Origin: Candidatus Hydrothermarchaeales archaeon | GTDB lineage: Archaea > Hydrothermarchaeota > Hydrothermarchaeia > Hydrothermarchaeales > JAZGAD01 | Direction: 5' to 3' | Assembly (NCBI GenBank): GCA_036444275.1 | Contig: JAZGAD010000027.1 | Span: 1-21,259, forward strand | DNA: 21,259 nucleotides | In this document: positions 2,064 to 19,578 of the stretch, in pieces | Layout of the letters: every line of letters starts with the position of its first letter | Position numbering within the stretch: the first letter of the stretch is position 1 | The notes under the pieces: generated by a model | Databases searched by the model: none | Told to the model about the DNA's origin: nothing | Seen by the model: only the letters and a program-made list of their open reading frames with translations | Made by a program: the position numbers and the translations under genes

Positions 2064-3230
2064 ATGGACTATGACGTTGTAGTAGTAGGGGCTGGACCCG
2101 CTGGGAGCATGGTTGCTAGGACCCTCGCTGAAAATGGAGCAAGCGTTTTAGTAGTGGAGAAGAGACCTGAGATAGGCATGCCTGTCAGGTGCGGTGAGGC
2201 AACAGGGCTAAGGACTCTACAGGAATTCGCTATTCCAAAGGATGAGCGGTTTATAGTCAATGAGACTAATGGAGTGTATATCTTTTCTCCAGATGGCACT
2301 AGGGCGGAGATGCTGAGCAGCGAGCCTAATACTTATATATTGGAGAGGAGGTATTTCGATAAATACTTGGCAATTCAAGCGGCTAGAGCCGGCGCAGAGG
2401 TTGTGACTAAGGCATATGCTACCGGCCTTTTGAGAAATGAAGGTGCCGTGAGGGTTAAACTCAAGCGCTTCGGGGATAATACTACAATCAAGTGCAAGTG
2501 TGTCGTTGGAGCCGATGGCGTAGAGAGCAAAGTGGGGAGATGGGTAGGTATAGATACGAGGACACCCCTTCAACAGATGTCCTCTAGTGTCCAGTTCGAG
2601 ATAGCGGGAGTTGATGTGGACCCTGATATCTTAGAGTTCTACTTTGGCAACCGGGTAGCGCCCAAAGGATATGTATGGGTCTTCCCAAAGGGAAAAGACG
2701 TAGCCAATGTGGGCCTAGGGGTAAGGGGGCATTCTGCTACAGCCTTCTCATACCTTAAGAAGTTTATAGCGTCAAAGCCGAACCTGAGGAAGGGAAGCGT
2801 AGTGGGAATCGTTGCAGGGGGAGTGCCTGTTGAAGGACCGGTTAAGAAGAGCGTAGCAGATGGCGTGCTCCTTGTCGGAGACGCGGCTAGGCAAGTGGAT
2901 CCTCTCACCGGAGGAGGGATTTATAATGCAATGCACTGTGGCGTTATAGCTGGACAGGTGATAACGGAGGCTCTTGAAAGGGAAGACTTCTCAGCGGCAA
3001 GCCTCTCTATCTATGAGGAGCGATGGCGAGCTGAGATAGGGCAGAAGCTCCTGAAATCCCAACGTATCAAAGAGGCCATGGAAAAGCTCAGCGACAGCGA
3101 TTTGAACAAGATAGTAAAGGCTATGCAGAATGTGAACTGGGGGGACATGAACATAAAGGATGTGACTAAGATGGTATTCCGCATGCCACCTGAGCTCCTG
3201 AACTTCATTAGAAACCTGCTCAAGAAGTAA
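2064..3230 (+). CDS. Digeranylgeranylglycerophospholipid reductase (geranylgeranyl reductase family FAD oxidoreductase)
   Basis: GAGPAG FAD motif, PVRCGEA, PKGYVWVFPK (PxxYxWxFP) and GDAARQVDPLTGGGI. ATG at 2064 follows GGTGA; the ORF track starts at the GTG at 2052. Confidence 0.92.
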   Translation: MDYDVVVVGAGPAGSMVARTLAENGASVLVVEKRPEIGMPVRCGEATGLRTLQEFAIPKDERFIVNETNGVYIFSPDGTRAEMLSSEPNTYILERRYFDKYLAIQAARAGAEVVTKAYATGLLRNEGAVRVKLKRFGDNTTIKCKCVVGADGVESKVGRWVGIDTRTPLQQMSSSVQFEIAGVDVDPDILEFYFGNRVAPKGYVWVFPKGKDVANVGLGVRGHSATAFSYLKKFIASKPNLRKGSVVGIVAGGVPVEGPVKKSVADGVLLVGDAARQVDPLTGGGIYNAMHCGVIAGQVITEALEREDFSAASLSIYEERWRAEIGQKLLKSQRIKEAMEKLSDSDLNKIVKAMQNVNWGDMNIKDVTKMVFRMPPELLNFIRNLLKK

Positions 3231-3303
3231 ACTCAAATTTTAGAGATCCTCATTTGTGAAATAAAACCAAAATATAAAAAGCCGTTAGGCATATCCAATT
3301 CCA

Positions 3304-3660
3304 ATGGAATACAAGCAGGTCATAGTGGTAAGAGGGGACCTAAAGATGAGCAGAGGCAAGACCTGTGCTCAAGTGGCGCATGCATCCCTTGGCAGCGCGG
3401 AGAAGGTGCAGGAGTTTAGAAAGGAATGGCGTGCGGCTTGGAAACGTGAAGGGCAGAGGAAAGTCGTAGTAAAAGTGGAGGATGAGAAGACGCTCTTCGA
3501 GTTACTGCATCAGTCAAAAGAAGCTGGAATTCCATGTTATCTCGTCGAAGATGCTGGCTTAACAGAACTGGAGCCGGGTACAACTACCACTCTAGGTATA
3601 GGCCCAGCACCCGGGGAAATAATAGATAGAATAACCGGCGATCTAGAGTTACTGCGATGA
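3304..3660 (+). CDS. pth2: Peptidyl-tRNA hydrolase Pth2 (archaeal/eukaryotic type)
   Basis: KQVIVVRGDLKMSRGKTCAQVAHAS, GQRKVVVK, DAGLTELEPGTTTTLGIGP, IDRITGDLELL. Confidence 0.96.
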   Translation: MEYKQVIVVRGDLKMSRGKTCAQVAHASLGSAEKVQEFRKEWRAAWKREGQRKVVVKVEDEKTLFELLHQSKEAGIPCYLVEDAGLTELEPGTTTTLGIGPAPGEIIDRITGDLELLR

Positions 3661-5820: not shown

Positions 5821-6749
5821 AGGAACACCTCCAGTGCAAATGCGATGCTACAGAAAACAGCCTCAACTGCCCAAACCCTGTGCACTACATCAATCTCTGT
5901 CATATCATGCCTCACCAGGAATAATCGAGGTAGTGATATATTTCCTCCTTCAGGAGTGTAAAGCTTTCCCTCTCTTACCAGCGTAGGCTTTTGAGATTCC
6001 CTCGTCATAACGCCTACTGAGAAATACTTCAAGGCAGCGTCTATGGCGTAGGGAACGAATACCAAGCTGCCAGCTAATTCGAATTTGCCTAGAATCACGG
6101 CTGTAAAGAGAGCTGCACCAATCGGCAGGGTGCCAACGTCCCCAGGGAAGGCTCTAGCAGGATATCTGTTGTAGTAAAGGAAAGCCAGCAGGACGCAGAA
6201 CATGGTAAAGGCGAGGGCAAAACTGGCTTGCGCATTGTTAAGTAAAGCGAGGAGGGCTATGCCCAGAGATGCTATCGCGCCTGTACCCACTTCCAGGCCG
6301 TTGAAGCCCGCCAGCATGTTGGTGAAGTTGCATGCTATAGCAAAAAGGAGCGGTAGCGCTAGAAGATATATTATTCCAAGATTATAGCCAAAGAGGGTTG
6401 GCTTAGCGTAGGGAACCAAGACCAGCCCAACTATTGTTAGGGAGAGCATCTTCTGCATTGGACCTAGTTTTCTAACGCCGTCGACAATGCCTATTGCACC
6501 TGCCAATATGACTACTAGTGTGCCTATTATGAGCTCTATCCATCCATAGTACAGGTAAGCAGCGGACAGTGATACCAGGAAACCCAAGAGTATCGCGAGG
6601 CCCACCATCTCCGGCACCTCTCGTCCATCTTCTTTATGCAGGTCTATACCTATGACGCCCCTGTTCTTCAGCGTCCTTGCAATGCCGGGCGTAACTGCTA
6701 GCGTTATGAAGAATGACAGGAAACCGAAGGCCAGTAGAAGTAGAAACAT
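5817..6749 (-). CDS. MraY/WecA/GPT-family polyprenyl-phosphate N-acetylhexosamine-1-phosphate transferase (AglH-like)
   Basis: Multi-TM protein with GIDLHK...VPEMVG, GIVDG, NFTNMLAGFNGLE and YNRYPARAFPGDVGT, typical of the GPT/AglH subfamily. Confidence 0.9.
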   Translation of the reverse strand: MFLLLLAFGFLSFFITLAVTPGIARTLKNRGVIGIDLHKEDGREVPEMVGLAILLGFLVSLSAAYLYYGWIELIIGTLVVILAGAIGIVDGVRKLGPMQKMLSLTIVGLVLVPYAKPTLFGYNLGIIYLLALPLLFAIACNFTNMLAGFNGLEVGTGAIASLGIALLALLNNAQASFALAFTMFCVLLAFLYYNRYPARAFPGDVGTLPIGAALFTAVILGKFELAGSLVFVPYAIDAALKYFSVGVMTRESQKPTLVREGKLYTPEGGNISLPRLFLVRHDMTEIDVVHRVWAVEAVFCSIAFALEVFL

Positions 6750-6758
6750 CCCTCTCCC

Positions 6759-7892
6759 CTAAGCAATCTCGAAGAAATAGAGGCTGCCGTCACTAGCTGC
6801 TACCGCGAGGTATTTATCGTCTGGTGAAAACACTACTCGATTCACATAGCTCCCTATGGGATATTTAACAACTAATTTCCCATCCCTATTAAGAAGGTAG
6901 AGGTTCTTATCCCAAGAGCCAACTGCCACATAGCTGGCATCAGAGGAGAGAGCCACGCCGTAGTTCAGGCGCCCTGTCTCGTATTTCCATAGAAGACTAT
7001 TCCCCTTATAGAGATAGACGTCATTGTCATGAGCAGCAACAGCTACGTAGTCTCCATTTGGAGAAACATCTACTCCGAGAACAAGGCTTCTCGACCCACG
7101 GGTATCCTCCCAGCTCAGCTCCCCTGCAGCATCAAAGAAATAGGTGTATGCATCGTCGCTCCCTGCAACAAGCCGGCCGTCAGATGTTAGGGCTACATCC
7201 CAGACACCCCAGGCGCTGTGCCTTGTCTCATGCTCCCATAATATGGCGCCTTTTTTATCCATACGAATGATCTTATCATTATCCAAGCCAAACACGATGG
7301 AATCACCTGTGGGGGAGATTGCTATACCCTTGGAGAGGCTCTCTGTCTCCTTTTTCCAGAGGAGTTTTCCTGACTTATCAAATAGGTAGACGGTGCCGTT
7401 GGGTATCACATAGCTGGTTGCAACTATACGATCCCCGCTTGGAGTAATATCCACGTCATTTACACTGCCCCTGGCCTTAAATTTCCAGAGGAGCTCGCCA
7501 CTCTTATCCAGCACATGCACATGATGATCCCAAGAGCCTGCGACTACTATATCGCCGTTGGTTGAGACTGCAGCACCGTAGACATCCTTTCCGGTTTCAT
7601 AGCTCCAGAGGAGTTTCAGCGGCGTGTAATCAGCCTTTACAGGTGCCTGAGTCTGCTGTGGAGTAGGAGCAGGTGTTGACGGGGGTGTAGGGGCAGGAGT
7701 TGCTGCTGGTGTTGAAGTCGGAGTAGCCCATGGTAATTCAGCTGAGATTGTTGGAAAGGGGGATTCAGTAGGGATTATAGTTTGAGCAGGTAGCTCAGGG
7801 GCAAGTGTAAGGGAAGTTGGAGCAGCTTCTTCTGGGGCCTGGACGCATGCAGCTACAGCCATTAGACACAGAAGCAATAAGGGAAGCCTCAT
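6759..7892 (-). CDS. Putative lipoprotein with Pro/Thr-rich linker and WD40/PQQ-like beta-propeller
   Basis: Hydrophobic signal ending in VAA-C (lipobox-like), a PTSTPAATPAPTPPSTPAPTP linker, then about 7 repeats of the type VxxVAxSxDGxxVxAGSWDxxVYLxDxxGxLLW. ATGA overlap with the polymerase stop. Confidence 0.82.
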   Translation of the reverse strand: MRLPLLLLCLMAVAACVQAPEEAAPTSLTLAPELPAQTIIPTESPFPTISAELPWATPTSTPAATPAPTPPSTPAPTPQQTQAPVKADYTPLKLLWSYETGKDVYGAAVSTNGDIVVAGSWDHHVHVLDKSGELLWKFKARGSVNDVDITPSGDRIVATSYVIPNGTVYLFDKSGKLLWKKETESLSKGIAISPTGDSIVFGLDNDKIIRMDKKGAILWEHETRHSAWGVWDVALTSDGRLVAGSDDAYTYFFDAAGELSWEDTRGSRSLVLGVDVSPNGDYVAVAAHDNDVYLYKGNSLLWKYETGRLNYGVALSSDASYVAVGSWDKNLYLLNRDGKLVVKYPIGSYVNRVVFSPDDKYLAVAASDGSLYFFEIA

Positions 7893-11839: not shown

Positions 11840-13078
11840 ATGCGGGTGTATTTCGAGACCTATGGGTGCACAATGAATCAGGGTGACAGCGAGGCCATGA
11901 TGGGTGCCTTAGAGCTGGAACATGAGCTCGTAGAAGACGCTGGGGAATGCGATGTCGCTGTTATCAATTCCTGCGGCGTGATAGAGCACACTGAACGGAA
12001 GATTCTGAAGAGGGTTCGAATATTCAAGGAGATGAACAAGCGCGTTGTAATGGCTGGGTGCTTGCCAGCGATTAATCCTAGTGCAGTAGAGGAAGCAGGC
12101 GTAGACGAGGTAGTGAAGAGGAATCCCGGTTCGATTCTGAGTGCTGTGCAAGGAATAGAAGAATTAAATCAGGATGAGGTTCTCCATGCTCCTCGTAAGA
12201 GAGGAAGTGCTGTTGTAGCAATAGTGCCTATCGCAGAGGGTTGCTTGGGTAAGTGCAGCTACTGTGCCACTAGGATTGCTAGGGGCAGGTTGGAAAGCTC
12301 TCCCATCAACTTTGTAGTGGATGAGGTAAGGCATGTTCTCGAGCAGGGTTTCAAGGAGATTCAGCTGACAGCGCAGGATACTGCTATCTATGGCAGGGAT
12401 CGTGGTACAAGCCTTCCAGAGCTCTTGATGAAGATCAGGGATATACCATCACCATCGAAGTTCAGGGTTCGCGTAGGGATGATGAACCCGAAGTTTGCTA
12501 TCGAGGTCTTGGATGATTTATGTGACGCCTATGACCATGAGAACATCTACAAATTTCTGCATTTGCCTGTGCAGAGTGGAGACGATGCTGTCTTGGAGCA
12601 TATGAAGCGTGGATATAGTGTTCAGGATTTCATCGAGATCGTTAATGCTTTCAGGAGGAGGTTCCCAGAGCTCATGCTGGCGACTGACGTTATAGTTGGT
12701 TATCCAACAGAGGATGAAGAATCTTTTTTAATGACGTATAAACTCATCGAGGATGTCAGACCCGACGTTCTCAACATAACGAGGTTCTCTTCTAGACCCG
12801 GAACTCTTGCTTCAAAGTTGAAGGACATGCCAGATAGGTACAAGAAGGAGAGATCAAGGAAGTTGACGTCACTCCAGACGGACATAGGCTTAAGGATCAA
12901 TGAGAGGTTAGTTGGTAAAGAGCTGGAGGTCCTCATTACAGAGAAGGGTAAGAACGGCACTATGAAGGGGAGGACGAATTTCTATAAAACTGTGGTACTG
13001 GAAAGCGGGAATCTGGGAGAATTTATGACTGTGAGGATTAAGGGGGCTACTTTTTCTTATCTAATTGCAGAGGCCTAA
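11840..13078 (+). CDS. mtaB: tRNA t6A37 methylthiotransferase (archaeal e-MtaB/CDKAL1-like, MiaB family radical SAM)
   Basis: N-terminal UPF0004 cysteines (ETYGCTMN, NSCGV, AGCLP), radical SAM motif GCLGKCSYC, RVGMMNP, HLPVQSG, TDVIVGYP and a C-terminal TRAM domain. Confidence 0.9.
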   Translation: MRVYFETYGCTMNQGDSEAMMGALELEHELVEDAGECDVAVINSCGVIEHTERKILKRVRIFKEMNKRVVMAGCLPAINPSAVEEAGVDEVVKRNPGSILSAVQGIEELNQDEVLHAPRKRGSAVVAIVPIAEGCLGKCSYCATRIARGRLESSPINFVVDEVRHVLEQGFKEIQLTAQDTAIYGRDRGTSLPELLMKIRDIPSPSKFRVRVGMMNPKFAIEVLDDLCDAYDHENIYKFLHLPVQSGDDAVLEHMKRGYSVQDFIEIVNAFRRRFPELMLATDVIVGYPTEDEESFLMTYKLIEDVRPDVLNITRFSSRPGTLASKLKDMPDRYKKERSRKLTSLQTDIGLRINERLVGKELEVLITEKGKNGTMKGRTNFYKTVVLESGNLGEFMTVRIKGATFSYLIAEA

Positions 13079-13159
13079 TAGCGTCTGGGTAGTGTATTGT
13101 AATTAGACAGTTCAAGGAAATCGAAATCTTATTTAACTTTAACACCCCATTTTGCTATC

Positions 13160-13513
13160 ATGACACAGATCCAATTATCCGAGGATACCTTCAAGAAGCT
13201 GGTTGAACTCAAAAACCATTGGTCATTCCATCATAGGAGGGTTACTAATACCGAGGTCATAAAACTGATAGAGGAATTCAAGATGAGGGTCTTCGGATAC
13301 AACAGCTCAACACCAGTCGAGGAGATCGAGAGGATAGCCAACTCAAAGACTAGGGATCAACTTGAAGAAGAAGCAGATAGATTCGCCAAGGGAATCGCTG
13401 AACTGCTCAAATCTGGCCATGACTTCGAGCCAGAGTATACCATTGATGAGCATATAAAGAAGATGCTCGAAGTAATCAATGATAGCGAGGATGTGGCTTC
13501 GCCGGTCTTTTAA
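13160..13513 (+). CDS. Hypothetical protein with a ribbon-helix-helix-like N-terminus
   Basis: 117-aa ORF in an otherwise empty gap, with a TATA-like TATTTAA about 25 bp upstream. MTQIQLSEDTFKKLVELK resembles the RHH strand and first helix. Confidence 0.7.
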   Translation: MTQIQLSEDTFKKLVELKNHWSFHHRRVTNTEVIKLIEEFKMRVFGYNSSTPVEEIERIANSKTRDQLEEEADRFAKGIAELLKSGHDFEPEYTIDEHIKKMLEVINDSEDVASPVF

Positions 13514-13687
13514 TTTTTTAGTTTGGATCAAACTTCGCCTGGTAAGTGCAAATTGAACTCGTATATTGAGTTGATGCCTACCCCCAAATATATTAAGTGT
13601 CTACGTTCCCTCAGGCGTGACCAACCGCTAAATTGAATGGTGCTCTAAACACCCCTGTTATAATCAATCTACTATTTTTTGAAGATT

Positions 13688-13760
13688 TCCTCAAAATTAT
13701 TGCATTTATTTGAGGATTTAATAAGACATACCGAAAAGTATTTAAAGGATATCATATTCT
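13688..13760 (+). promoter_or_regulatory. amt-glnK promoter with upstream inverted repeat
   Basis: BRE-TATA CCGAAAAG-TATTTAAA at about 13731-13746. Inverted repeat TCCTCAAA (13688-95) / TTTGAGGA (13709-16). GGAT-N6-TTCT at 13747-13760. Confidence 0.6.
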
Positions 13761-13802
13761 TTTTCTAAAAACCTGAAGAAAAATACAAAGTTAGGTAGTA
13801 AA

Positions 13803-15399
<1,597 letters not shown>

Positions 15400-15695: not shown

Positions 15696-16043
15696 TTATC
15701 CCTTCATTTTGTAATAATCTGCAAAGATATCGCCAAATGCAGAGCAGAAGTAGTCCATGGCCTCTTTTATCCCTTTTTCTCCCTTTTGGGTGAGTGAATA
15801 GATTACCTTCCTGCCCTCCTTCGTTGAAGAAATAGCACCAGTTTCTTTTAGTTGTTTTAGGGCAGGATAGATCGTCCCAGGGGTAGGCTTTCCTCCCTTC
15901 ATCCTCGCTATTTCATTGGCGATTTCGTCTCCATACATTGGTCTTTTTGAAAGTAGCCAGAGGATGCAGAACTGAAGCATGCCACGCATATCACAGCAGC
16001 TTGGAGGGCATATATTGGTTTCAGGACCACATTGTTTTGACAT
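15696..16043 (-). CDS. PadR-family transcriptional regulator with a Cys-rich N-terminus
   Basis: RGMLQFCILWLLSKRPMYGDEI...PGTIYPALKQL...GRKVIYSLTQKG is the PadR winged helix. Start placed at 16043 (MSKQCGP), about 25 bp from the minus-strand TTTTAAAT at 16067-74; the ORF track starts at 16085. Confidence 0.9.
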   Translation of the reverse strand: MSKQCGPETNICPPSCCDMRGMLQFCILWLLSKRPMYGDEIANEIARMKGGKPTPGTIYPALKQLKETGAISSTKEGRKVIYSLTQKGEKGIKEAMDYFCSAFGDIFADYYKMKG

Positions 16044-16066
16044 AATGCTAATTTTTGTTAATAGAT

Positions 16067-16140
16067 ATTTAAAACTATTGGGCATCCGATATATTTATAT
16101 GTGTTAATATCGGATATGCGATATATAGGATGTCCAATGA
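16067..16140. promoter_or_regulatory. Divergent padR/arsM promoters with three ATATCG-N6-CGATAT-like operators
   Basis: CTATTG-GGCATC-CGATAT (16075-92), ATATCG-GATATG-CGATAT (16107-24, perfect arms) and ATATAG-GATGTC-CAATGA (16123-40). TATA-like boxes at 16067-74 (-) and 16094-100 (+). Confidence 0.7.
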
Positions 16141-16160
16141 GTAAAGAGGTGAAAATCAAA

Positions 16161-16982
16161 ATGGCAGATGAAGAAATAAAAAAATCCATAAGAGAAGCCT
16201 ATGGCAGGATAGCTCAAACACAAGAAGGTTGCGGATGCACCTGCGGACCAACATGTGGACCAACCGACGTGCCAGATAATACTGACTTTGCCAAAATTAT
16301 AGGCTATTCAGAAGAAGAACTGAAAGCCATACCAAAAGAAGCTAATCTAGGTCTAAGTTGCGGAAACCCAACAGCAATAGCCAGCCTCAAAAAAGGCGAG
16401 ACTGTTCTAGACCTCGGCTCAGGCGCAGGATTTGATGTTTTCCTAGTAACGGCCAAGGTTGGTCCAACCGGAAAAGCTATAGGAGTGGATATGACACCCG
16501 AGATGCTTGAGAAGGCAAGAGAAAACGCCGAGAAAAACGGGATTGAAAACGTCGAGTTTAGACTTGGCGAAATCGAGAATTTACCTATAGGGGACAACTC
16601 GATTGACGTGGTTATAAGTAATTGTGTTATCAATTTAGCGGCTGATAAGCCAAGAGTCTTCCAGGAGATTTACAGGGTTTTAAAGACAGGTGGGAGAATA
16701 GCTATTTCTGATATGGCTCTTCTAAAAGAGCTGCCTAAAAAAATTCGAGATAGTATCGATGCCTATGTAGGATGTGTTTCCGGAGCTGTGCTTATTGAGG
16801 AGTACAAAAGGATTGTGGAAGCATCTGGATTAAAGGATGTAAAAATCACAATCAACGGCGCGTCTAGCTGCATCGATCCAGACACAAAAGATCCGATAGG
16901 CAGAGCTGTCCTAGATAATATAGGGGAGAATGAATCTCTCGACAGCTATGTGGTCAGTGCAAATGTAGAGGGTCGCAAATGA
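16161..16982 (+). CDS. arsM: Arsenite methyltransferase
   Basis: N-terminal CGCTCGPTCG, GYSEEEL, NLGLSCGNP, SAM motif DLGSGAGFD, GVDMTPEM, ISNCVINL, YVGCVSGA; the catalytic-type cysteines are present. ATG at 16161 follows GAGGTGA; the ORF track starts at 16101. Confidence 0.94.
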   Translation: MADEEIKKSIREAYGRIAQTQEGCGCTCGPTCGPTDVPDNTDFAKIIGYSEEELKAIPKEANLGLSCGNPTAIASLKKGETVLDLGSGAGFDVFLVTAKVGPTGKAIGVDMTPEMLEKARENAEKNGIENVEFRLGEIENLPIGDNSIDVVISNCVINLAADKPRVFQEIYRVLKTGGRIAISDMALLKELPKKIRDSIDAYVGCVSGAVLIEEYKRIVEASGLKDVKITINGASSCIDPDTKDPIGRAVLDNIGENESLDSYVVSANVEGRK

Positions 16983-19021: not shown

Positions 19022-19264
19022 CTAAACAACGGCTTCTTCTTCACTGGGTTTTACCAAGAATTTGATCGATGGGATCTCACCCTTTTTCAGCTGGACGTTG
19101 AACTTTTCGAAACCGACCACTTCCCCTGTTTTAACGTCTTTCTTGATCAAGAATTCCTCTTCTGGCTCCTCGCAGATCGCCTCTCTGGGTTCTCCGAACC
19201 AAACGTCAAGGGTATTTCCAACTGGGTCGAAGACTACTAAGACTTCTTTTGATTTCTTTGCCAT
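19022..19264 (-). CDS. DUF2283-like small acidic protein, putative antitoxin
   Basis: VVFDPVGNTLDVWF...KKDVKTGEVVGFE fits the DUF2283 pattern (YDxxxDxLYI...G.vvG.E). Overlaps the upstream basic ORF. Confidence 0.75.
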   Translation of the reverse strand: MAKKSKEVLVVFDPVGNTLDVWFGEPREAICEEPEEEFLIKKDVKTGEVVGFEKFNVQLKKGEIPSIKFLVKPSEEEAVV

Positions 19265-19578
19265 ATCACGTTCCCTCTCTTTATTTTATCAGCAAGGTAT
19301 GCGGTTACTATGAATCCTTCACCGTTCAGTTGCTTAATCAGCACACAAACATAACGATTCTCTAAGTTCTTGTACCGCCTGTAATAAAGCTGAACCTTTG
19401 GATCTTTCCTGCTTTTCCTGATTTCATCAGGCTCCCTTAGCGTCTCTTTTACCTCTTTTTCGTATCTCTTGATTATCGGATGCTTGGATTCTACGATGAG
19501 CGTCCAGTATTCCTCTGTTGTCCTTATAGTTATGCCCAGGGGCGTTTTAACCTTCAATATTATCCTGCCTTTTATCAC
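19237..19578 (-). CDS. DUF4258/BECR (RelE-like fold) putative ribonuclease toxin
   Basis: TPLGITIRTTEEYW...KHP...TLREPDEIRKSRKDP...LYYR...GFIVTAY; a basic protein paired with a DUF2283-like gene. GTG start, GAGG RBS and a minus-strand AAAAAG-TTTTATA promoter at about 19625-19637. Confidence 0.72.
   Translation of the reverse strand: MIKGRIILKVKTPLGITIRTTEEYWTLIVESKHPIIKRYEKEVKETLREPDEIRKSRKDPKVQLYYRRYKNLENRYVCVLIKQLNGEGFIVTAYLADKIKRGNVIWQRNQKKS

Follow-up and report, generated by a model that had tools for sequence, protein, structure and literature searches.

What switches on arsenic methylation in an archaeon whose arsM gene has an uncharacteristic regulator at its side? The question is raised by a 21,259-nucleotide (nt) stretch of DNA from a Candidatus Hydrothermarchaeales archaeon (NCBI GenBank assembly GCA_036444275.1, contig JAZGAD010000027.1, positions 1 to 21,259 of the forward strand; hereafter the window), in which arsM, the gene for As(III) S-adenosylmethionine methyltransferase, stands divergent from padR, a gene for a small PadR-family regulator with a cysteine-rich N-terminal tail. 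Arsenic methylation by anaerobic archaea and bacteria controls the amount of toxic, mobile methylated arsenic that arises in paddy soils and sediments, and to our knowledge the switching-on of archaeal arsM is essentially unstudied. An original prediction, made on the letters of this locus, had proposed that the PadR protein senses arsenic in the place of ArsR. We found that the gene pair recurs across archaea together with a 16-base-pair (bp) palindromic operator, and that a cluster of cysteines in the tail of the regulator goes with the presence of arsM. From this pattern we consider the PadR protein to be, with fair probability, a repressor of arsM and of its own gene that is released by arsenicals through its tail cysteines.

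The divergent padR-arsM pair recurs across archaea

The PadR gene of the window occupies positions 15696..16043 on the minus strand (coding 15699-16043, stop codon 15696-15698) and encodes a 115-amino-acid (aa) protein that begins with MSKQCGPETNICPPSCCDMRG. Its translation confirmed the cysteines at positions 5, 12, 16, 17, 26 and 100 on which the original prediction was built, and the protein matched the PadR family PF03551 over residues 27-93 with 50.9 bits against a cut-off of 27. The arsM gene runs away from it on the plus strand at 16137..16982 (281 aa; coding 16137-16979, with the stop codon included to 16982), and its product scored 335.5 bits against the cut-off of 263 of the NCBIfam arsenite methyltransferase model NF008823, so that the divergent arrangement, too, was borne out by matches above the cut-offs on both sides. 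Cysteines of this ArsM are found in an N-terminal Cys-rich stretch and in the segments GLSCGNP, ISNCVINL and YVGCVSGA, and they may be equivalent to the catalytic cysteines of characterised ArsM proteins. The open reading frame (ORF) of padR extends over 15696-16085 (129 aa), and we prefer the internal ATG at 16043 over that at 16085 because the latter falls within operator O1 (see below) and relatives have no such extension. For arsM, which is contained in the plus-strand ORF 16101-16982, the start is most likely ATG 16137, as the resulting 29 nt between operator O2 and the ATG fit the spacing in relatives.

A search of a 5.8-billion-protein collection yielded 251 relatives of the PadR protein, with named members from Hydrothermarchaeales, Bathyarchaeia, Methanoperedens, ANME-2, Thorarchaeota, Micrarchaeota and Methanosuratincola. 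Species-representative genomes held at least 579 relatives; the neighbours of the best 80 were analysed, with partners detected by a tblastn search with the window ArsM against the flanks of these loci. In 62 of these 80 best relatives, the PadR gene has a divergent ArsM homologue directly upstream, the aligned ends being 59-653 bp apart, and the linkage of such CC-motif PadRs to ars genes thereby held up. Eighteen loci showed no upstream arsM, two of which (L017 and L043) have less than 300 bp of upstream flank, too little to judge. All of the 23 partner ORFs that were sampled, out of 50 called, passed the NF008823 cut-off with 295-354 bits. The linked pair spans Bathyarchaeia, Thorarchaeota, Hermodarchaeota, Promethearchaeota, Methanosuratincola, Methanocellales, Methanosarcinaceae and Thermoplasmata. 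As it recurs in 62 of the 80 closest relatives, together with the conserved operator described below, the arrangement is far from a chance one.

A Pfam scan, which covered 205 of the 237 flanking ORFs, showed that the outer neighbours vary from locus to locus and include glutamine synthetase, elongation factor EF-1alpha, TATA-binding protein (TBP), glutamyl-tRNA synthetase, L7Ae, amt and P-type ATPases, among others. Since the outer neighbours differ between loci, the padR-arsM pair itself is the conserved unit. No Acr3, ArsB, ArsC or ArsA domain was found among the 205 scanned ORFs; of the linkage to arsM, acr3 and arsC that was to be scored, only that to arsM was thus recovered. On a tree of 79 rows built from the DNA-binding core, with the cysteine tail excluded, arsM linkage is spread across the whole tree and the unlinked members form five small clusters, the pattern needing at least 5 changes compared to 14.8 for shuffled labels. 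Around the cassette, synteny is kept in nine Thorarchaeota loci (L037, L040, L052, L055, L057, L059, L063, L064 and L071), where arsM is followed by a gene for a ~270-aa protein with two retropepsin-like aspartyl protease domains (PF13650) and where, in most of the nine, a TBP gene comes after the PadR gene.

A 16-bp palindrome marks the padR-arsM spacer

Comparison of the spacers between padR and arsM revealed a common 16-bp palindrome, TATYGG-N4-CCRATA. When one mismatch was allowed and the 270 bp upstream of the PadR gene were searched, all 62 linked loci had it, 54 of them at least twice, as did 14 of the 18 unlinked loci (76 of 80 overall). Its density amounts to 7.14 per kb in this 270-bp region, compared to 0.021 per kb over the other 755 kb of these loci. 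The 93-bp spacer of the window holds two such sites with centres 32 bp apart: the padR-proximal operator O1 at 16076..16091 (TATTGGGCATCCGATA), an exact match, and the arsM-proximal operator O2 at 16108..16123 (TATCGGATATGCGATA), with one mismatch. Across the 1.49-Mb assembly, the exact palindrome occurs once, as O1, and only 8 sites have at most one mismatch, 2 of them at padR-arsM; in a complete 1.9-Mb Bathyarchaeia chromosome, the exact palindrome is likewise found once, at that genome's own padR-arsM locus. A 9-bp inverted repeat in the window, ATCCGATAT-N14-ATATCGGAT (16084-16115), had also been considered as the operator and was rejected, as cross-locus comparison showed it to consist of the inner halves of the two 16-bp palindromes.

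The position of the sites relative to promoter-like elements suggests how they might act. O1 and O2 flank an AT-rich, TATA-like stretch at 16092..16100 (TATTTATAT, or ATATAAATA on the padR strand), which is a candidate for a shared or bidirectional TATA box. A second TATA-like stretch, TTTTAAATAT, lies at 16065..16074 on the minus strand, ~26 nt upstream of the padR ATG, and is a possible promoter for a leaderless padR mRNA. Across the family, 61 of 81 entries have a TATA-like hexamer at most 14 nt upstream of the PadR-proximal operator. This operator usually starts 21-26 nt before the ATG and in most relatives ends ~7 nt before it; such a layout, with TATA box, operator and start in this order, implies a padR mRNA that is leaderless. 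At the other end of the spacer, 29-31 nt most commonly separate the start of the arsM-proximal site from the arsM ATG (29 nt in the window), and a GGTGA-like ribosome-binding site is found within this interval. The distance from one site to the other is in most cases 30, 32 or 39-40 bp, about three or four helical turns. Such a layout points to promoter elements that would be occluded by the bound regulator, and the presence of a palindromic operator in the promoter region of padR itself suggests autoregulation.

A wider regulon was not apparent: in 8 genomes, exact operator matches elsewhere fell only inside genes or upstream of a second Cys-PadR paralogue, and none was located at acr3 or other ars genes. 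Within the loci, the few matches outside the 270-bp region lie mostly upstream of a second PadR gene, a second methyltransferase gene or a MarR/HVO_A0261-like gene. Examples are three sites at L070:6389-6449, upstream of a second, 208-aa methyltransferase (6582-7205, plus strand), three sites at L025:7421-7481, upstream of a second PadR gene (7527-7820, plus strand), and one site at about 6304-6320 in L053, L072 and L073, between the PadR gene and a MarR/HVO_A0261-like gene. The genome of locus L018 furthermore carries a second, shorter Cys-PadR paralogue of 99 aa that starts with MNCCDMKG (L085:3062-3361, plus strand; contig C21 of genome G002), with an exact operator at L085:3006-3021, ~40 nt upstream of its start.

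An N-terminal cysteine cluster goes with arsM linkage

Upon tabulating the cysteines of all 80 relatives, we observed that those in the N-terminal tail differ between the 62 arsM-linked and the 18 unlinked members. A CC pair directly before the DMRG motif is present in 62 of 62 linked compared to 12 of 18 unlinked proteins, at least three cysteines among the 20 residues ahead of DMRG in 60 of 62 compared to 10 of 18, and two CC pairs in 53 of 62 compared to 1 of 18. The N-terminal cluster typically reads CC-P-P/E-x-CC, with CC-x3-6-CC in most relatives; in the window protein, it takes the form C12-x3-C16-C17 plus C5. The CCDMR motif is invariant or nearly so and constitutes the most conserved feature outside the DNA-binding domain: in a 45-member alignment, C17, D18, M19 and R20 are invariant, C16 is kept in at least 90% and C100 is common.

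The distribution of C100 is a different one. It is present in 36 of 62 linked and 12 of 18 unlinked members. The other 26 linked proteins have L, Y, I, N, F, H, V or D at this position, and 22 of them carry cysteines at the extreme C-terminus instead, such as the CxC of Thorarchaeota. By this tabulation, the feature that tracks arsM is the N-terminal cysteine cluster and not C100, which places the putative sensor in the disordered tail rather than in a C16/C17/C100 triad. The original prediction had favoured a site made of C16-C17 and C100; the placement of C100 in the modelled dimer interface agrees with it, but with C100 present in only 36 of 62 linked members, a C16/C17/C100' site cannot, on the aligned proteins, be the family-wide solution.

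The PadR protein is predicted to be a short dimeric winged-helix protein

An AlphaFold2 model of the window protein (mean predicted local distance difference test, pLDDT, 87.4) shows a tail of residues 1-19, modelled as disordered and carrying C5, C12, C16 and C17, followed by a winged helix-turn-helix (residues 20-84; helices 20-33, 38-49 and 55-68, strands 71-76 and 79-84) and a single long dimerisation helix (residues 86-114) that carries C100. The closest Foldseek matches are short PadR proteins, namely 4esf (BCE3449), 1xma (Cth-833), RosR, LmrR and Rv3488, in agreement with a sequence search of the PDB. As modelled, the protein is of the PadR-s2 type, ~110 aa long, with the wing followed by a single long C-terminal helix and without a second domain. 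It is not a member of ArsR/SmtB, as the model NF033788 scored 21.9 bits against a cut-off of 55 and PF01022 gave no match. No NCBIfam model covers its PadR family, the best being TIGR03433 with 35 bits against a cut-off of 101.8.

Modeled as two copies, the protein reached an ipSAE of 0.55 compared to 0.03 for the best of 3 controls. In calibration, 20 of 30 proteins whose solved structure is a one-chain pair attained the mark, as did 1 of 23 whose solved structure is a single chain. Runs agreed in at least 50% of contacts, with a partner pLDDT of at least 75. The predicted interface comprises residues 26, 29, 48-50 and 96-113, that is, helix 1 and the C-terminal helix, and includes C100, which touches residues 106', 107', 110' and 111'. 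This homodimer through the N-terminal and C-terminal helices shows likeness to solved PadR dimers, and because such dimers have already been solved, the pass of the dimer model may reflect likeness to known structures.

Regulators of other folds occupy the same slot upstream of arsM

We also approached the locus from the side of arsM. Among 101 Bathyarchaeia genomes, 49 had an ArsM match, and the best 30 ArsM loci were inspected. A Cys-tailed PadR lies divergently upstream in 9 of these 30, and operator sites occur in exactly these 9 loci and in none of the 21 others. At six loci (L103, L104, L109, L114, L118 and L119), the upstream ORF encodes an HgcC-like, Cys-pair AbrB protein (NF040962, all above cut-off), at three a true ArsR/SmtB metalloregulator (NF033788, 86-90 bits against 55) and at one Acr3; at the remaining 11 of 30, no regulator was recognised. 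In the phylum of the window, where ArsM was found in 10 of 38 genomes, the ArsM closest to that of the window (64% identity, L090) comes after an 86-aa HgcC-like AbrB protein (L090:1220-1477, plus strand) with two CC pairs that scored 127 bits against the NF040962 cut-off of 70. Seven other loci of this phylum (L093-L098 and L100) carry an ArsM-like domain (NF008823, 243-274 bits) inside 730-848-aa open frames, which may be fused multidomain methyltransferases.

As these loci read, arsM travels with interchangeable small regulators of three folds (PadR, AbrB and ArsR), all rich in Cys pairs. We regard this interchangeability as the strongest indirect argument that the PadR protein is the metalloid sensor of its cassette. 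The proposal that a Cys-bearing PadR takes the role of ArsR at arsM thus has on its side the linkage in 62 of 80 relatives and the presence of ArsR/SmtB proteins in the same slot elsewhere, which leaves the arsenical response as the part that we infer. Three unrelated DNA-binding folds in one arsM slot would make a clear case of convergent sensor evolution.

Proposed mechanism and alternatives

We propose that the PadR protein is a short dimeric winged-helix repressor that would bind the two TATYGG-N4-CCRATA palindromes centred 32 bp apart and, once bound, would block access of the promoter machinery at the TATA-like core. Because the operators flank this core within the 93-bp spacer, both arsM and padR itself would be shut off. 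As(III), its methylated product MAs(III), or both would then bind three or four thiols of the tail that precedes helix 1 (in the window protein C12, C16, C17 and possibly C5), which would loosen the repressor from the DNA and induce arsM. We judge an arsenical-released repressor of arsM and of its own gene, acting through the tail cysteines, to be the probable reading of this locus; repression, the identity of the ligand, the cysteines that bind it and the transmission to the DNA-binding domain are the steps that we infer here.

Several observations weigh against this arsenic-responsive repressor. The 80 loci are the best of at least 579 relatives, so that 62 of 80 may overstate the linkage across the family. 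In the clade closest to the window protein (98% support in the SH-aLRT branch test, 9 rows), 7 members are without an adjoining arsM: L004, the closest named relative, from Hydrothermarchaeales, and six Methanoperedens-type members. None of the 11 other ArsM loci in the window's own phylum has a Cys-tailed PadR or an operator. The contrast in cysteines between linked and unlinked members (Fisher p = 5e-5) is indicative only, since the sequences are related and not independent and the tree needs only at least 5 linkage changes, and the p value therefore overstates the significance. With pLDDT values of 51-62 over residues 1-19, the model offers no thiol geometry for a three-sulfur site in the tail. 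Lastly, O1 of the window starts 48 nt before the padR ATG, compared to the usual 21-26 nt.

Further points of this kind come from the unlinked members, and they bear on a generic thiol switch, in which the tail cysteines would sense oxidants or electrophiles by disulfide formation or S-alkylation, arsM being one of several stress genes and arsenic not the specific signal. These members, mainly Methanoperedens-type, retain the operator (14 of 18) and many cysteines and adjoin genes for FMN reductase, nitroreductase, glyoxalase, DoxX and HxlR, a typical electrophile and redox-stress set, which indicates that the Cys module is not by itself tied to arsenic. RosR of Halobacterium, which presumably acts in the oxidative-stress response, is moreover among the best PDB sequence matches. 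We nevertheless consider a generic thiol switch quite unlikely, given that arsM is the dominant and phylogenetically widest partner (62 of 80), the exact operator is unique to the padR-arsM locus in two genomes, true ArsR/SmtB metalloregulators occupy the same slot in sister genomes, and it is precisely the unlinked members whose tails are poorer in cysteines (1 of 18 with two CC pairs). A site across the dimer, with As(III) held between C16-C17 of one subunit and the C-terminal-helix residue C100 of the partner, can draw on the conservation of C17 and C16 and the frequency of C100 in the 45-sequence alignment, as well as on the model, where C100 is in the interface and helix 1 (residues 26 and 29) packs on the C-terminal helix of the partner. 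It appears unlikely in view of the 26 of 62 linked members that have C100 replaced, 22 of them with the extreme C-terminal Cys instead; residues 16 and 17 are, in addition, not among the confidently placed interface residues, where residues that go unnamed are merely uncertain.

Four to six cysteines in a short tail could equally hold many thiophilic metals, and the protein might report another soft metal (Cd, Hg, Cu(I) or Zn) or, through an iron-sulfur cluster, Fe-S or redox status. The PadR-s2 protein Rv3488, which we take to bind metals, is among the structural matches, and the HgcC-like regulators found in the same slot elsewhere are named for an association with mercury-methylation genes. 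Against such a metal or cluster stand the conserved partner, an arsenite methyltransferase above its curated cut-off, and the neighbourhood, as the 205 scanned ORFs contained no metal-efflux or hgcAB genes except for Ca/Mg-type P-type ATPases at 3 loci and one CDF protein. Vicinal Cys pairs are, furthermore, poorly suited to a single Fe-S cluster and typical of As(III) sites. The cysteines could also be structural or incidental, with a small organic ligand, perhaps S-adenosylmethionine, S-adenosylhomocysteine or the methylated product, in a dimer-interface pocket as in LmrR and classical PadR proteins. Fold and dimer do match those of LmrR-type PadR-s2 proteins, in which the dimer interface is where ligands bind, but the tail cysteines are highly conserved (CCDMR) and their number tracks arsM linkage. 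The arsM partner and the Cys pattern make both of these readings less likely: we hold a soft metal or Fe-S cluster to be very unlikely and an organic pocket ligand to be the least probable of all.

The neighbourhood of the Methanoperedens-type paralogues can be described more closely. In L013, L016 and L019 (and also in L010 and L018), the tail reads C..C.PESC, with Ser for the first Cys of the pair. The genes of these paralogues keep two operators and are divergent from a gene for an FMN reductase (PF03358), followed by one for a nitroreductase (e.g., L019:3328-4017 and 2657-3319, both on the minus strand), with glyoxalase, DoxX and HxlR genes nearby. These paralogues may represent a re-targeted thiol sensor. 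An assignment of the FMN reductases as ArsH was considered and dropped, as they gave no NCBIfam match at E <= 1e-10; since they match neither ArsH nor any other NCBIfam model, they argue neither for nor against a thiol switch.

Beyond the arsenical-released repressor itself, we tentatively consider a bolder version, to which we would assign somewhat less than even chances: that the four-Cys tail (CC-x3-6-CC) is a self-contained metalloid module, archaeal and independent of both ArsR and the bacterial PadRars discussed below, which releases the repressor as it folds around As(III) or MAs(III). If true, this folding would be a kind of allostery that has not been described for PadR proteins; sediment archaea (Bathyarchaeia and Asgard lineages) would switch arsenic methylation mainly through the padR-arsM cassette, with its two operators and TATA core; and those paralogues that are unlinked and have trimmed tails would have come to respond to other thiol-reactive compounds. 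In either version, the locus defines a widespread, compact control cassette of regulator, 16-bp operator and putative promoter layout that is common to Bathyarchaeia, Asgard archaea, methanogen relatives and the Hydrothermarchaeota-like genome of the window. Such a cassette could mark arsenic-responsive transcription in metatranscriptomes and could serve as a part for anaerobic arsenic biosensors.

Genome context of the window

The absence of an ArsR-type gene from the window, as originally predicted, was confirmed: the six HTH_5 matches of the assembly (1.49 Mb in 61 contigs, 81% complete) lie on contigs C12, C53, C26 and C34, and none lies on C27, the contig of the window. The only Acr3 gene of the assembly is located on another contig (C48:31014-32117, plus strand; 373 bits against a cut-off of 282.8), where it comes after two membrane-protein genes and has neither an adjoining regulator nor a PadR operator. 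ArsB gave no match in the assembly, and for ArsC only a sub-threshold ArsC-like gene of the low-molecular-weight-phosphatase type was found.

According to the Pfam scans, the other ORFs of the window are of a housekeeping kind and include trp genes, F420 genes, glycosyltransferases, a MiaB-like radical SAM enzyme, amt, P-II and archaeal tRNA-guanine transglycosylase (TGT). The MiaB-like radical SAM gene and amt flank the cassette (window 11840-15396); amt is also near the cassette in the Methanosarcinaceae locus L005 and a radical SAM gene in the Methanocellales locus L006, which hints at an older common neighbourhood. Farther away, two small overlapping genes on the minus strand (19025-19264 and 19240-19578) may form a toxin-antitoxin pair, judging from a weak, sub-threshold match of the 113-aa product to PBECR2, a barnase/EndoU/RelE-like nuclease family (22.1 bits against 27.1); the 80-aa partner has no family.

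Comparison with known systems

The role that we propose for the PadR protein, that of an autoregulated repressor at ars genes, is the one known from the As(III) repressors of the ArsR/SmtB family, which have another fold and another operator. These repressors, R773 ArsR among them, are released by As(III) on three thiols, and their sites have evolved at different positions. AfArsR and the metallochaperone ArsD use a vicinal pair and a third Cys five or six residues away, and CgArsR1 an N-terminal vicinal pair and a Cys from the partner subunit. The window tail, with C12-x3-C16-C17 plus C5, resembles these vicinal-pair-plus-one sites. The HgcC-like AbrB proteins (NF040962) are similar in being small Cys-pair DNA-binding proteins directly upstream of arsM, and they are candidate metalloid sensors as well; they differ in their AbrB/SpoVT swapped-hairpin fold and in being co-oriented with arsM rather than divergent from it, and, going by the family name, they are also associated with hgcAB.

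In structure, the closest known proteins are LmrR, BCE3449, Rv3488 and RosR, which share the ~110-aa winged helix-turn-helix with a long C-terminal helix and a dimer formed via helix 1 and helix 4 (Foldseek TMq 0.62-0.72). Their aligned stretches are, however, without the Cys-rich N-terminal tail, the best PDB alignments starting at residues 10-19 of the query. The ligands of LmrR-like solved PadR-s2 proteins are drugs, or metals in the case of Rv3488, bound at the dimer interface.

The closest known system in function is bacterial. PadRars of Azospirillum halopraeferens Au 4 is, by the title of its report as cited in PMC11566425, a PadR-family repressor of an operon for trivalent-metalloid resistance (Zhang, Wu, Tang, Chen, Rosen, Zhao 2022, Environ Microbiol 24:5139, doi 10.1111/1462-2920.16147). 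As it was published in 2022, a PadR-type metalloid repressor is a known kind of protein, and the premise of the original prediction, by which the PadRs characterised so far respond to phenolic acids or drugs, is no longer up to date. Our literature search, which left most subscription journals outside, turned up no report of a PadR at arsM or of one that takes part in arsenic regulation in archaea.

The two systems are alike in having a PadR-type regulator at ars genes in place of ArsR and an operator with an inverted repeat. The PadRars operator, as quoted by a citing paper, is CCTTGA-N11-TCAAGG, compared to TATYGG-N4-CCRATA in the archaeal family described here. These two families also differ in target gene, which is arsM in the archaea, in size and, reportedly, in the position of the cysteines, a comparison that is one of descriptions rather than of aligned sequences. 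The PadRars operon is said to be padR-arsV-arsW and PadRars to respond best to MAs(III), and the critical vicinal cysteines of this longer protein reportedly lie internally and near its C-terminus (at about Cys56/57 and 133/134). The archaeal Cys-tailed PadR, with its cysteines ahead of helix 1, is probably an independent solution relative to PadRars.

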